Source of the DNA: TPA_inf: Saccharomyces
Lineage: Eukaryota
Direction of reading: 5' to 3'
Length of the DNA stretch: 64,000 nucleotides
NCBI GenBank assembly: GCA_000146045.2
Contig: BK006946.2
Location: 860,432 to 924,431, forward strand
Shown here: in pieces, positions 46,933-64,000 of the stretch
Numbering within the stretch: position 1 is the first letter of the stretch
Layout: each line of letters opens with the position of its first letter
Translations under genes and position numbers: made by a program
The notes under the pieces: model-generated
Seen by the model: the letters and a program-made list of their open reading frames with translations, nothing else
Databases searched by the model: none
What the model was told of the DNA's origin: nothing

Positions 46933-49900
46933 ATGGGTTCATCTGGTTCAAAATCGACCACAGCCACTACCACATCGCATAGTAGCACGACTACTACTAG
47001 TAGCACAACCAGTACAACTACGCCTACTACCACTAGCACGACAAGCACGACAAGCACTAAAGTTACAACTAGCCCAGAAATTATTGTCAGTAGTTCTAGC
47101 ACATTAGTTTCTTCTGTTGTACCCGAGTTTACTTCTAGCTCGTCGCTCTCCTCTGATACAATTGCCTCAATTCTATCATCGGAGTCATTGGTTTCCATTT
47201 TTTCTTCTCTTTCTTACACATCATCCGATATTTCTAGTACATCAGTCAACGATGTCGAATCATCAACCTCTGGCCCCTCAAACTCATACAGTGCGCTTTC
47301 CTCCACAAATGCACAACTGTCCAGCTCCACTACAGAGACTGACTCCATAAGTAGTAGTGCTATTCAAACATCTTCCCCGCAAACCAGTTCATCAAATGGA
47401 GGTGGTTCCTCTTCGGAGCCATTGGGAAAGTCCTCTGTCCTTGAAACTACTGCTTCATCTTCTGATACAACTGCAGTCACATCCTCCACATTTACCACGC
47501 TTACTGACGTTTCATCTTCTCCAAAGATAAGTTCCTCAGGATCGGCTGTCACTTCAGTTGGTACTACTTCCGATGCCTCAAAGGAAGTTTTTAGTTCAAG
47601 CACGTCCGATGTTTCTTCCCTACTATCAAGTACTTCCAGCCCCGCAAGCTCTACTATTTCTGAAACCCTACCATTTTCCTCTACAATTTTATCCATCACT
47701 TCCAGCCCAGTAAGTTCAGAAGCTCCATCGGCAACGTCTAGCGTAATTAGTTCAGAAGCTTCATGGGCAACGTCTAGCTCAGTGAGCTCGGAAGCTCCAT
47801 TGGCAACGTCTAGCGTAGTGAGTTCAGAAGCTCCATCGTCAACGTCTAGCGTAGTGAGTTCAGAAGCTCCATCGTCAACATCTAGCTCAGTGAGTTCCGA
47901 AATTTCGTCAACAACATCTAGCTCAGTAAGTTCAGAAGCTCCATTGGCAACGTCTAGCGTAGTGAGTTCAGAAGCTCCATCGTCAACATCTAGCTCAGTG
48001 AGTTCCGAAATTTCGTCAACAACATCTAGCTCAGTAAGTTCGGAAGCTCCATTGGCAACGTCTAGCGTAGTGAGTTCAGAAGCTCCATCGTCAACATCTA
48101 GCTCAGTGAGTTCAGAAGCTCCATCGTCAACATCTAGCTCAGTGAGTTCAGAAGCTCCATCGTCAACGTCTAGCTCAGTGAGTTCGGAAATTTCGTCAAC
48201 AAAATCTAGCGTAATGAGTTCAGAAGTTTCATCGGCAACGTCTAGCCTAGTGAGTTCGGAAGCTCCATCGGCAATTTCCAGCTTAGCAAGTTCTAGACTG
48301 TTTAGCTCTAAAAATACATCAGTTACTTCTACTTTGGTTGCTACAGAAGCTTCGTCAGTAACTTCTAGCCTAAGACCTTCTAGTGAGACATTAGCAAGCA
48401 ATTCAATCATTGAAAGCTCTTTGTCGACGGGTTACAATTCGACCGTTTCTACCACAACATCCGCCGCATCTAGTACACTTGGATCTAAGGTTTCGTCAAG
48501 TAATTCCAGAATGGCCACTTCCAAAACCTCATCTACTTCCTCCGACTTGAGTAAGTCTAGTGTAATATTCGGCAATAGTTCTACCGTTACAACCTCTCCA
48601 TCAGCGTCTATCAGTTTAACCGCATCTCCACTTCCATCGGTCTGGTCTGATATCACCTCTTCGGAAGCTTCATCAATTTCCTCTAACCTGGCTAGCTCCA
48701 GTGCGCCATCTGACAATAATTCCACCATTGCAAGTGCCTCGCTGATTGTCACCAAAACAAAAAACTCAGTCGTTTCATCAATTGTCTCTAGTATAACTTC
48801 TTCTGAAACTACAAACGAATCCAATTTGGCCACATCTAGTACATCGCTTTTGAGTAATAAAGCTACTGCCCGTTCTTTATCAACATCCAACGCTACAAGT
48901 GCTTCTAACGTTCCAACAGGCACATTTAGCTCCATGAGCTCTCATACTTCGGTGATAACTCCCGGCTTTTCCACCAGTAGTGCGTCACTCGCAATTAATT
49001 CAACTGTCGTTAGCTCATCATTGGCAGGTTATAGTTTCTCGACACCTGAAAGCTCTCCAACTACTTCCACTTTGGTTACTTCAGAGGCTCCTTCAACCGT
49101 TTCCAGTATGACCACAAGTGCCCCATTTATAAATAATTCTACCTCTGCTAGACCTTCGCCAAGTACAGCTAGTTTCATTACTGAATCCACTTCAAGCATT
49201 TCCAGCGTGCCATTAGCGAGTGGCGACGTCACTTCCTCATTAGCGGCCCACAATTTAACTACTTTCAGTGCTCCTTCAACATCCAGTGCACAACTTGTAA
49301 GCAAATCAACTACCTCTAGCTCCATCCTGGTCACACCCAGAATCGACAGGTCTGGAAATTCCTCAACTGCCTCTAGAATTGCAACATCACTCCCTAACAA
49401 AACTACATTTGTTTCTTCCCTAAGTTCAACATCCGCTCATGCCAGAAATATCTTTAATTCAACTGTTCTAGCTACTGCTAAACAAATTGAAACTTTAACT
49501 TCAACAGTCAATTGCAGCAACCCTACTCCTAATTACAACATAACCAAAACAGTAATCGTAAGTAGGGAGACTACTGCCATAGGAACTGTTACAAGTTGTT
49601 CGGGTGGTTGCACCAAGAATAGAAAGTCAACCACACTTATTACTATAACAGATATTGATGCTTCTACTGTTACTACTTGCCCAGAAAAAGAAGTAACATC
49701 GACCACAAGTGGAGATGAGGCAGAACATACCACTAGCACTAAAATAAGTAATTTCGAAACGTCCACGTTTTCGGAAAGTTTTAAGGATATGAAGACTTCT
49801 CAGGAAACTAAAAAAGCTAAACCAGGATCAGAAACGGTGAGGAGCTCGTCATCTTTTGTCGAAAAAACCTCACCAACAACAAAGGCTTCTCCATCAACTT

Positions 49901-50355
49901 CCCCATCAGAAAGTAAAGCTGCAGGAAATACATCCGTTGCAACGAATGCTTCACCATCAACTTCCCCATCAGAAAGTCAAGGTACAGGAAGCACATCTGT
50001 AGAGGGAGCAAAAAGCAAGTCAACTAAAAATTCAGAAGGAGTATCAACCACTAAAGCGAAAAACACATCAACTGTTGCGAAATCTTCAACTGAAAGTCCG
50101 ATCGGGAGGGGTGAAACTACCCTTGAAACGATAATTGTCTCGAGCCAAAAGTCGCTATTAACATCACAACTAAGTTCATCCACTGAAAAGGTAAACAGAT
50201 CTACCACCAAACCTACGGCAGCGATTCATGGAACATCCTCATCCGCTAAACAAAGCACAACATATACTGTCAGCACGGCAAAAGAAAATACCGGTGCATC
50301 CCTGAACATTAACATGAAAGCTTTTGTTATTGGCGCTATTGCTTTGGTAGCTTAG
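46933..50355 (+). CDS. Ser/Thr-rich, probably heavily O-glycosylated secreted or cell-wall protein containing a 16-copy 12-aa tandem repeat (YMR317W), 1140 aa
   Basis: 1140-aa ORF composed of more than 50% Ser/Thr. It contains the internal repeat SSEAPSSTSSSV in 16 copies and a hydrophobic C-terminus (AFVIGAIALVA). Position matches YMR317W. Confidence 0.85.
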   Translation: MGSSGSKSTTATTTSHSSTTTTSSTTSTTTPTTTSTTSTTSTKVTTSPEIIVSSSSTLVSSVVPEFTSSSSLSSDTIASILSSESLVSIFSSLSYTSSDISSTSVNDVESSTSGPSNSYSALSSTNAQLSSSTTETDSISSSAIQTSSPQTSSSNGGGSSSEPLGKSSVLETTASSSDTTAVTSSTFTTLTDVSSSPKISSSGSAVTSVGTTSDASKEVFSSSTSDVSSLLSSTSSPASSTISETLPFSSTILSITSSPVSSEAPSATSSVISSEASWATSSSVSSEAPLATSSVVSSEAPSSTSSVVSSEAPSSTSSSVSSEISSTTSSSVSSEAPLATSSVVSSEAPSSTSSSVSSEISSTTSSSVSSEAPLATSSVVSSEAPSSTSSSVSSEAPSSTSSSVSSEAPSSTSSSVSSEISSTKSSVMSSEVSSATSSLVSSEAPSAISSLASSRLFSSKNTSVTSTLVATEASSVTSSLRPSSETLASNSIIESSLSTGYNSTVSTTTSAASSTLGSKVSSSNSRMATSKTSSTSSDLSKSSVIFGNSSTVTTSPSASISLTASPLPSVWSDITSSEASSISSNLASSSAPSDNNSTIASASLIVTKTKNSVVSSIVSSITSSETTNESNLATSSTSLLSNKATARSLSTSNATSASNVPTGTFSSMSSHTSVITPGFSTSSASLAINSTVVSSSLAGYSFSTPESSPTTSTLVTSEAPSTVSSMTTSAPFINNSTSARPSPSTASFITESTSSISSVPLASGDVTSSLAAHNLTTFSAPSTSSAQLVSKSTTSSSILVTPRIDRSGNSSTASRIATSLPNKTTFVSSLSSTSAHARNIFNSTVLATAKQIETLTSTVNCSNPTPNYNITKTVIVSRETTAIGTVTSCSGGCTKNRKSTTLITITDIDASTVTTCPEKEVTSTTSGDEAEHTTSTKISNFETSTFSESFKDMKTSQETKKAKPGSETVRSSSSFVEKTSPTTKASPSTSPSESKAAGNTSVATNASPSTSPSESQGTGSTSVEGAKSKSTKNSEGVSTTKAKNTSTVAKSSTESPIGRGETTLETIIVSSQKSLLTSQLSSSTEKVNRSTTKPTAAIHGTSSSAKQSTTYTVSTAKENTGASLNINMKAFVIGAIALVA
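47713..48288 (+). repeat. In-frame 36-bp minisatellite, 16 tandem copies (576 bp), with a 108-bp (3-unit) higher-order periodicity
   Basis: Consensus unit agttcagaagctccatcgtcaacatctagctcagtg, read directly from the sequence. Blocks 47929-48036 and 48037-48144 are near-identical 108-bp super-units. Confidence 0.9.
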
Positions 50356-50629: not shown

Positions 50630-51712
50630 CTAGTCTGAAAATTCTTTGTCGTAGCCGACTAAGGTAAATCTATATCTAACGTCACCCTTTTCCATCCTTT
50701 CGAAGGCTTCATGGACGCCGGCTTCACCAACAGGTAATGTTTCCACCCAAATTTTGATATCTTTTTCAGAGACTAATTTCAAGAGTTGGTTCAATTCTTT
50801 GATGGAACCTAAAGCACTGTAAGAAATGGAGACAGCCTTTAAGCCATATGGCTTTAGCGATAACATTTCGTGTTGTTCTGGTATAGAGATTGAGACAATT
50901 CTACCACCAACCTTCATAGCCTTTGGCATAATGTTGAAGTCAATGTCGGTAAGGGAGGAAGCACAGACTACAATCAGGTCGAAGGTGTCAAAGTACTTTT
51001 CACCCCAATCACCTTCTTCTAATGTAGCAATGTAGTGATCGGCGCCCATCTTCATTGCATCTTCTCTTTTTCTCGAAGAACGAGAAATAACATACGTCTC
51101 TGCCCCCATGGCTTTGGAAATCAATGTACCCATACTGCCGATACCACCAAGACCAACTATACCAACTTTTTTACCTGGACCGCAACCGTTACGAACCAAT
51201 GGAGAGTACACAGTCAAACCACCACATAATAGTGGAGCAGCCAAATGTGATGGAATATTCTCTGGGATAGGCACCACAAAATGTTCATGAACTCTGACGT
51301 AGTTTGCATAGCCACCCTGCGACACATAGCCGTCTTCATAAGGCTGACTGTATGTGGTAACAAACTTGGTGCAGTATGGTTCATTATCATTCTTACAACG
51401 GTCACATTCCAAGCATGAAAAGACTTGAGCACCTACACCAACACGTTGACCGACTTTCAACCCACTGTTTGACTTGGGCCCTAGCTTGACAACTTTACCA
51501 ACGATTTCATGACCAACGACTAGCGGCATCTTCATATTGCCCCAATGACCAGCTGCACAATGAATATCACTACCGCAGACACCACATGCTTCGATCTTAA
51601 TGTCAATGTCATGATCGTAAAATGGTTTTGGGTCATACTTTGTCTTCTTTGGGTTTTTCCAATCTTCGTGTGATTGAATAGCGATACCTTCAAATTTCTC
51701 AGGATAAGACAT
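50630..51712 (-). CDS. ADH6: NADPH-dependent medium-chain (cinnamyl-type) alcohol dehydrogenase, 360 aa
   Basis: Zinc-MDR motifs GHEIVGKVV and CGVCGSDIH, and Rossmann motif GLGGIGSMG. Recognisable as Adh6. Confidence 0.92.
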   Translation of the reverse strand: MSYPEKFEGIAIQSHEDWKNPKKTKYDPKPFYDHDIDIKIEACGVCGSDIHCAAGHWGNMKMPLVVGHEIVGKVVKLGPKSNSGLKVGQRVGVGAQVFSCLECDRCKNDNEPYCTKFVTTYSQPYEDGYVSQGGYANYVRVHEHFVVPIPENIPSHLAAPLLCGGLTVYSPLVRNGCGPGKKVGIVGLGGIGSMGTLISKAMGAETYVISRSSRKREDAMKMGADHYIATLEEGDWGEKYFDTFDLIVVCASSLTDIDFNIMPKAMKVGGRIVSISIPEQHEMLSLKPYGLKAVSISYSALGSIKELNQLLKLVSEKDIKIWVETLPVGEAGVHEAFERMEKGDVRYRFTLVGYDKEFSD

Positions 51713-63580: not shown

Positions 63581-63847
63581 TAACGTTTCAATATGGTAGG
63601 TAGAAGAACAGTATGGTGAGTAGCAGATGGTGGATGGTAGAGGAATAGCAGGGTAAGTGGTAGTGGAGTTGGATATGGGTAATTGGAGGGTAACGGTTAT
63701 GGTGCACGATGGGTTGGTGGTAGCAAGTAGAGAGATGGATGGTGGTTGGAGCGGTATGGTTGAAGGGGACAGGGTAACGAGTGGGGAGGTAGCGTAATGG
63801 AGGGTAAGTTAAGAGACATGCTAAATCAGGGTAAGAATAGGGTAGGG
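63580..63847. repeat. GT-rich, C-poor subtelomeric repeat region (X-element combinatorial-repeat-like)
   Basis: Strong strand asymmetry (GGTA/GGTG/GTGG-type words, very few C on the plus strand) running into the TTAGGG copies. Confidence 0.5.
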
Positions 63848-63875
63848 TTAGGGTAGGGTTAGGGTAGTGTTAGGG
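63848..63875 (+). repeat. Three TTAGGG copies (Tbf1-type sites) at the junction with the terminal repeats
   Basis: TTAGGG occurs at 63848-63853, 63859-63864 and 63870-63875. Confidence 0.8.
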
Positions 63876-64000
63876 TGTGGGTGTGGTGTGTGTGTGTGGG
63901 TGTGGTGTGGGTGTGGGTGTGGTGTGTGGGTGTGGTGTGTGGGTGTGTGTGGGTGTGGTGTGGTGTGTGGGTGTGGTGTGGGTGTGGTGTGTGTGTGGGG
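63876..64000 (+). repeat. Terminal telomeric TG(1-3) repeats (C(1-3)A on the other strand), running to the end of the window
   Basis: The final 125 nt consist only of G and T in irregular GTG/GGTG/GGGTG units, typical of yeast telomerase-added repeats. Confidence 0.92.

Follow-up and report, generated by a model that had tools for sequence, protein, structure and literature searches.

The 64,000-nucleotide (nt) window analysed here (the whole stretch of DNA, positions 860,432 to 924,431 of contig BK006946.2) carries on its forward strand, at 46933..50355, an open reading frame (ORF) of 1140 amino acids (aa), of which 33% are serine and 17% threonine (50% Ser+Thr). This ORF is YMR317W, at the right end of Saccharomyces cerevisiae chromosome XIII, the name already given to it in a sequence-only reading of the window. 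The identification follows from the neighbours ADH6 and DIA1, from the terminal telomere and from published variant coordinates. The downstream ORF (50630..51712, minus strand) is an ADH6-type alcohol dehydrogenase whose exact product is encoded on many S. cerevisiae chromosome XIII records, and the upstream 336-aa ORF carries the name Dia1p in NCBI and UniRef. Positions 63830-64000, the end of the window, hold degenerate TTAGGG-like repeats followed by terminal TG1-3 telomere repeats, and mark a right chromosome end. A variant published on the R64 reference (chr13:908134-908705; PMC7075250) falls on the tandem array described below with a single offset of 860,430; around YMR317W, the window matches the S288C reference R64 in both coordinates and structure. 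The exact 1140-aa product was absent from the gene index, and the reference assembly was not among the sampled records. Neither this product nor seven allelic products had an exact counterpart in the protein collection, and a Pfam scan of the sense and antisense products returned no families. When homologs were sought for the complete protein, and separately for its less repetitive C-terminal 305 aa, none of the 8000 word-sharing candidates in each case passed the E-value cut-off. Alleles and orthologs were fetched by means of the neighbouring genes ADH6, DIA1, YMR315W and FET4, and the loci so obtained are labelled L001 etc.

We are highly confident that YMR317W contains a coding minisatellite which is in frame and hypervariable. 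What is new and most useful, and is taken up further below, is that the array has 16 units in the reference-like window but 25 in all other assemblies sampled from this haplotype. The features of the array in the window, established using the Tandem Repeats Finder (TRF), a unit table, pairwise differences and unit typing, are as follows.

47704..48288, plus strand: in-frame coding minisatellite with a 36-base-pair (bp) unit
47857..48072, plus strand: two 108-bp higher-order copies, units E-F-G (47857-47964) and E-F-H (47965-48072), with 1 mismatch in 108 positions

TRF recovered both of the periods described in the sequence-only reading. The interval 47704..48274 was reported as 15.9 copies of a 36-bp period (81% matches, no indels, score 673) and again as 5.3 copies of a 108-bp period (87% matches, score 771), the better agreement at 108 bp being that of a higher-order repeat. 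Base identity along the array agrees with this, amounting to 0.81 at lag 36 and 0.87 at lag 108, versus 0.16-0.38 at lags which are not multiples of 36. Cutting at 47713-48288 gives 16 exact 36-nt units in frame with the start codon [(47713-46933) mod 3 = 0], each starting with SSE, so that the copy number first proposed was borne out by both the unit table and TRF; a 17th 36-nt window (SSRLFSSKNTSV) is degenerate. The units encode the 12-residue peptide SSE[AVI][PS]S[AST]TSS[SVL]V and, typed as DNA, follow the order A B C D E F G E F H E E I J K L. Apart from the sense frame and a single antisense frame, every frame has stop codons in the array.

While the 108-bp period stood, the two blocks originally offered as its near-identical copies (47929-48036 and 48037-48144) did not; they differ at 9 of 108 positions, eight of these in the third unit (ISSTT vs APSST). 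The former block is separated by only 2 mismatches from the block preceding it (47821-47928), and the true pair is the E-F-G and E-F-H copies listed above. These lie within a near-perfect lag-108 tract, in which 47840-48005 matches the sequence 108 nt downstream over 166 nt with at most 1 mismatch. The higher-order repeat of the window is real, since the block D-E-F-G-E-F-H-E was also found in independent long assemblies.

Copy number was compared among 18 distinct chromosome-level S. cerevisiae assemblies which span the array, with lengths measured between conserved flanks. The alleles found were:

405 nt: 11 units, 4 assemblies
585 nt: 16 units, 1 assembly, with unit types unlike those of the window
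621 nt: 17 units, 1 assembly
657 nt: 18 units, 3 assemblies
801 nt: 22 units, 1 assembly
912 nt: 25 units, 8 assemblies

Nine different unit orders occur among these assemblies, and every allele is open and in frame. The range of 11 to 25 units agrees with the prediction that the repeat would be hypervariable between strains, and clearly runs counter to the refuting condition proposed with it, one and the same copy number in many divergent strains. The 760 nt of the ORF lying 5' of the array and the 2041 nt lying 3' of it are constant in length in 17 of the 18 assemblies, the sole exception (L006) being 9 nt longer in the part 5' of the array; with that exception, the array is the only length-variable site in the 3.4-kb low-complexity YMR317W. 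Two further loci, L015 (9 units) and L027 (6 units), were not counted as alleles; both are low-coverage short-read metagenome contigs which look collapsed. YMR317W is reportedly among the repeat genes listed by Verstrepen et al. in 2005. Doniger et al. (2008) placed it among 12 genes with in-frame tandem-repeat indels between S288c, M22 and YPS163 and point to Verstrepen et al. for earlier descriptions (PMC2515631). The repeat polymorphism of YMR317W is, therefore, already published (PMC2515631, PMC7075250), and the feature belongs to a well-known class.

Typing of the 36-nt units at the DNA level distinguished 50 units over the first 15 arrays and revealed how alleles differ. The L004 allele equals that of L001 minus one unit, and its junction unit e is chimeric, Z(1-24)+a(25-36), with the breakpoint inside the unit. 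The 18-unit allele, QRSTUVWRS-XYZaWRb-cL, holds a 7-unit higher-order repeat, and the 11-unit alleles of L040 (..WRScL) and L036 (..WRbcL) are this same allele minus one 7-unit block, removed in two different registers. In L003 the higher-order repeat spans two units, (E j)x3; in L006, 4-5 units (u v s [w] x) form a block that recurs about three times. The 3-unit repeat (E F G/H) is common to the window and the 25-unit allele. Higher-order registers amount to three units (108 bp) in the window, and to 2, 5, 7 and about 13 units in other alleles.

Allele-specific multi-unit periods and chimeric junctions are the footprints expected of misaligned homologous exchange, conversion or slippage. The alleles show that the 36-bp units are gained, lost and reshuffled via homology-driven misalignment, for which the candidate routes are unequal sister-chromatid or allelic exchange, gene conversion or synthesis-dependent strand annealing with template switching, and replication slippage; misalignment in multi-unit registers generates the allele-specific higher-order repeats. 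An origin by unequal crossing-over or slippage had been suggested from the window, and the chimeric units and whole-block deletions lend it support, although the specific pathway (exchange, conversion or slippage) is not decidable from sequence. Since the unit length is a multiple of three, such rearrangements keep the reading frame. A point against general instability is that the identical 25-unit array is found in strains whose flanks are about 20 single-nucleotide polymorphisms (SNPs) apart, which implies that the array is not unstable on every lineage.

The units themselves show signs of constraint. The ratio of nonsynonymous to synonymous polymorphism (pN/pS) among 49 distinct 36-nt units comes to about 0.55. 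All of these units have Ser at positions 1, 2, 9 and 10, while Glu3 is found in 44 of the 49 and Thr8 in 45. This indicates that a Ser-rich, acidic unit motif may be under weak purifying selection. The placement of YMR317W between DIA1 and ADH6 is common to four species of Saccharomyces, the orthologs outside S. cerevisiae being:

L018, S. kudriavzevii: 1537 aa, syntenic between DIA1 and ADH6
L020, S. uvarum: 1200 aa, syntenic between DIA1 and ADH6
L024, S. eubayanus: 848 aa, syntenic between DIA1 and ADH6

Tandem arrays occupy the corresponding part of the ORF in all three, with different architectures. In S. kudriavzevii (L018 13213-15795) there are approximately 2.4 kb of 48-bp units with higher-order periods of 207, 255 and 462 bp, an array much bigger and more complex than that of S. 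cerevisiae. The S. uvarum array has periods of 36, 63, 105 and 141 bp, and S. eubayanus has 36-bp arrays. Arrays are also present towards the C-terminus in S. uvarum (90 bp x 3.3; L020 15520-15815) and S. eubayanus (36 bp x 4.5; L024 14482-14643). All four species share the core SE[AVI][PS]S[AS]TSS, and a unit of S. eubayanus, TSEVSSATSSLA, resembles the S. cerevisiae unit SSEVSSATSSLV. Because the core motif is common to the four species while the arrays differ, the repeat family is likely to be older than the genus, with its arrays turning over within species.

As to what the array does, it may set the length of a Ser/Thr-rich, probably O-mannosylated, extended spacer in a mannoprotein-like product which would be regulated by hypoxia and sterols (Upc2, Mss11). 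By analogy with FLO1, FLO11 and HPF1, a change in copy number would tune the reach or the glycan load of the protein. In FLO1, repeat number has been linked experimentally to adhesion. The repeats of FLO1 and FLO11/MUC1 (Verstrepen et al. 2005, as cited in PMC2515631 and PMC7263189) resemble those of YMR317W in being in-frame, Ser/Thr-rich minisatellites with strain-polymorphic copy number, for which recombination or slippage is the source of change; unlike these genes, YMR317W encodes neither a signal peptide nor any adhesin or ligand-binding domain that could be recognised. HPF1 (Barre et al. 2020, PMC7263189) is likewise a mannoprotein-type gene with a Ser/Thr-rich array and natural alleles that differ strongly in length, visible only in complete assemblies; its units are of 21-71 aa, versus 12 aa in YMR317W, and their expansion affects buoyancy and life span (PMC7263189). 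The DAN/TIR mannoprotein genes of the Upc2 regulon share with YMR317W its status as an Upc2 target (PMC12804360), TCGTATA promoter cores, Ser/Thr-richness and a hydrophobic C-terminus, whereas Ymr317w lacks their SRP1/TIP1 domain, as judged by the empty Pfam scan, and their signal peptide. Coding variable number tandem repeats of the human MUC1 type also consist of in-frame, Ser/Thr/Pro-rich, length-polymorphic units; the MUC1 stalk is glycosylated, while glycosylation of Ymr317w is inferred, and MUC1 is unrelated to YMR317W in sequence and organism. Biologically, YMR317W is another case of length-variable Ser/Thr-rich coding repeats in the mannoprotein-type genes of yeast.

Two points weigh against a role for array length. 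Firstly, a pN/pS of 0.55 indicates weak constraint, with many substitutions tolerated, and also fits a largely neutral spacer; secondly, in the literature mentioning YMR317W no experiment ties copy number to a phenotype. The array could on this basis be a neutral mutational hotspot in a disordered, low-complexity region, its length irrelevant and its variation noise. We consider this quite possible, if somewhat short of an even chance. It would accommodate orthologs of between 848 and 1537 aa whose repeat units differ in length, and a gene which is non-essential and whose deletion is even reported to confer tolerance to multiple stresses (PMC13237927). Against it stand the invariance of four serines and near-invariance of Glu3, together with a core of the form SE[AV][PS]SATSS kept in four species; that all alleles stay open also speaks against it, though this is partly automatic with a unit length that is a multiple of three.

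We turn now to the allele in the window. Four assemblies, GCA_010356925.1, GCA_016858175.1, GCA_030292175.1 and GCA_002571405.2, match the flanks of the window without a mismatch or gap over at least 6.7 kb (or 3.7 kb) on each side, and all four carry a 25-unit array, MNHDEFGEFHEOPABCEFHEEIJKL (912 bp), one unit of which has a CAA insertion. The same array is present in four further assemblies whose flanks are about 20 SNPs away. All of the units of the window (ABCDEFGEFHEEIJKL) occur in this allele. An exact greedy parse of the window array plus 100-nt flanks against the 25-unit array of L011 yielded four exact segments with zero private bases, comprising a collinear start, 101 nt of the paralogous second half, 289 collinear nt and a jump over 327 nt. 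The opposite derivation, of the 25-unit allele from that of the window, was rejected; it requires eight segments, some of only 7-15 nt, and units N and P are missing from the window yet exist in other natural alleles. Two features of the window emerge from the parse:

47743..47843, plus strand: candidate conversion patch or assembly mosaic of 101 nt (end of A, B, C, start of D), by parse against L011
47965..48133, plus strand: interval (shared units E-F-H-E plus about 24 nt) in which the window lacks 327 nt of the 25-unit allele (units O P A B C E F H E), by parse and unit maps

The patch matches the second half of the 25-unit array (position 611 of the allele plus flank) and not the collinear units M-N-H. 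The 25-unit array lends itself to division into two diverged halves, MNH-DEFG-EFHE-OP and ABC-----EFHE-EI. Wherever these halves differ, the window has the second-half variant, and it has first-half units only where the second half is without them. In short-read contigs with identical flanks (L014 and 10 places similar to it, and L015), the flank is followed by M-N-H and never by A-B-C. Short-read contigs break 111 nt inside the array (L014/L028) or collapse to 6-9 units (six in L027, nine in L015). The order in L015, MNH[...]EEIJKL, is that of the 25-unit allele minus 16 units and illustrates the ease with which assembly shortens this array.

Published data point in the same direction. PacBio sequences of BY4742 and SY14 compared with R64 gave a duplication (DUP) at chr13:908134-908705, which is exactly the array (PMC7075250). 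W303 Illumina data show YMR317W at approximately two-fold depth and with low mapping quality. A BY4742-derived mutant was described as having c.1195_1196insCAA and a cluster of changes at c.1257-1271 (PMC13237927). When H-E-O-P-A-B of the 25-unit allele is aligned on H-E-E-I-J-K of the window, c.1195_1196insCAA is predicted exactly, along with a block of differences at c.1254-1272.

From these data we conclude that the 16-unit form in the window is probably a collapsed or clone-specific mosaic, and that laboratory strains of S288C background carry 25 units. The shortened mosaic might have been produced by assembly collapse, by deletion during cloning or by rearrangement in the sequenced lineage, which are not separable here. 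It has also to be considered that the 16-unit arrangement is a true allele of the reference lineage, generated by a recent mitotic rearrangement and not by cloning or assembly. Complex events that combine deletion with conversion are known from yeast minisatellites, the window array is in frame and has no private bases, and reads anchored to the left in unique flanking sequence would be expected to show M-N-H if these units were in the sequenced clone. With the reference assembly outside the sample and the exact product missing from the gene index, a genuine allele of the AB972 lineage also retains some probability. We nevertheless regard a true allele as unlikely. The flank-A-B-C junction and this 16-unit order are absent elsewhere in the sampled sequences, including the four assemblies with identical flanks and the short-read contigs; it is exactly at the array that the reference conflicts with the PacBio data of BY4742 and the Illumina data of W303; and a mosaic made up of second-half variants is what would be expected on the collapse of two paralogous half-arrays.

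If the reference array is indeed a shortened mosaic, reads from the missing units will pile up on it and give rise to two-fold depth, low mapping quality and recurrent "frameshifts", "insertions" and "independent mutations". Calls of this kind have been published. "Sequential frameshifts" in YMR317W were noted in six lines (PMC12637671), and four recurrent YMR317W sites were removed by the authors of another study (bioRxiv 10.1101/2025.02.12.637395); judging from the array structure, both sets are probably mapping artefacts. The YMR317W "recurrent mutations" that were read as adaptation in PMC6992709 are possibly an artefact of mapping to the array as well. Some evolution and mutant-sequencing studies treat YMR317W calls as biological. 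In practice, the array is a site at which variant calling and assembly from short reads easily go wrong. A reference apparently 9 units below the laboratory strains would explain why YMR317W is repeatedly "recurrently mutated", and fixing or masking the array would remove this false positive.

That Ymr317w is a cell-surface protein is an assumption, to which its two termini are relevant:

46933..46953, plus strand: N-terminus MGSSGSK, which fits the N-myristoylation consensus MGxxxS(K); conserved in S. kudriavzevii, S. uvarum, S. eubayanus and L016
50299..50352, plus strand: C-terminus resembling a glycosylphosphatidylinositol (GPI) signal, SLNINMKAFVIGAIALVA, the only strongly hydrophobic segment of the protein, located after the small residues NTGAS; conserved in four species

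At the C-terminus, NTGAS-LNINMK-AFVIGAIALVA fits, as judged by eye, an omega region followed by a spacer and a hydrophobic tail. A block of four cysteines, VTSCSGGC...TTCPEKE (residues 861-916), is conserved across species, Ymr317w contains 18 N-x-S/T sequons, and its 50% Ser+Thr content is that of a region suitable for O-mannosylation. The C-terminus, cysteine block and sequons would fit a secreted, GPI-processed mannoprotein with an O-mannosylated spacer of variable length. As for regulation, YMR317W is reported as a target of Upc2 alongside TIR1, TIR3, DAN1 and DAN4 (PMC12804360), and Mss11 raises its expression along with that of FLO and TIR genes (PMC3276193). Its 1.5-kb promoter contains three TCGTATA cores (45585-45591, 45949-45955 and 46024-46030), a motif that occurs 13 times in the 64-kb window versus 5.2 expected by chance. 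These cores, which are of the sterol-response element type, fit the reported regulation by Upc2 and hypoxia.

The principal difficulty for a location in the cell wall is the N-terminus. No hydrophobic N-terminal signal peptide was found, the maximum 15-residue Kyte-Doolittle value being 0.17 in the first 40 aa, and the role as an O-mannosylated cell-wall spacer is for this reason not secured. The N-terminus MGSSGSKSTT is conserved, and an in-frame stop lies five codons upstream of the YMR317W start. An upstream exon or intron supplying a signal peptide was considered and rejected; a TATA-like element lies about 100 nt upstream, and no TACTAAC branch site is located near enough to the start codon, on its upstream side, for an intron. 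A conserved N-terminus of the myristoylation type and a GPI-like C-terminus without a signal peptide make up a contradictory topology for a presumed wall protein. Ymr317w might instead be a cytosolic protein anchored by a lipid, N-myristoylated at Gly2, in which the Ser/Thr repeats form a disordered or phosphorylated linker. The missing hydrophobic signal and the retention of MGSSGSK in all examined orthologs, though the rest diverges, would both be explained. We think this distinctly improbable in view of the conserved GPI-signal-like C-terminus, the four conserved cysteines, the sequons and the co-regulation with DAN, TIR and FLO wall genes, all of which speak against it.

On the opposite strand, the following ORF overlaps the array:

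47364..48410, minus strand: antisense ORF of 348 aa with an ATG start, a by-product of composition (ORF list, permutation test, no Pfam match)

The sequence-only reading had noted this ORF and called it spurious, and both statements stand. It had attributed the ORF to the stop-free repeat; the permutation test places the cause in the codon composition of the whole Ser/Thr-rich gene and not in the repeat alone. The frame concerned has 10 stops in 1139 codons, whereas the two remaining antisense frames have 114 and 124. When the codons of the sense ORF were permuted, the longest antisense open run averaged 347 +/- 112 aa and reached at least 348 aa in 41% of trials. Despite its length, its ATG and the preference of automatic callers for antisense ORFs in L015, L026 and L027, a real protein-coding gene at this position is extremely improbable, given that permuted genes so often yield one equally long, that its frame has so few stops over the whole gene, that it has no Pfam match and that its length simply tracks that of the array. 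Further antisense ORFs of 102-167 aa in the same frame, at 46890-47198, 48432-48935 and 49029-49400 (all minus strand), have the same compositional origin. Annotation of the locus is affected in other assemblies: in L026/L033 (GCA_030292175.1), L015 and L027, antisense ORFs (e.g. of 457 aa and 167 aa) are called in place of the sense gene, while the sense gene annotated in L002 and L011 has 1148 aa, although the 3750-nt span that it covers encodes 1249 aa.

Two smaller repeats are also present in YMR317W. The first is the following:

49877..49997, plus strand: second short in-frame repeat, 63 bp x 1.9 (TRF), encoding ASPSTSPSES...; constant in length among the S. cerevisiae assemblies

The other is a 9-bp repeat (AGCACGACA x 2.6) at positions 47035-47057 of the window, in the Thr-rich N-terminus.

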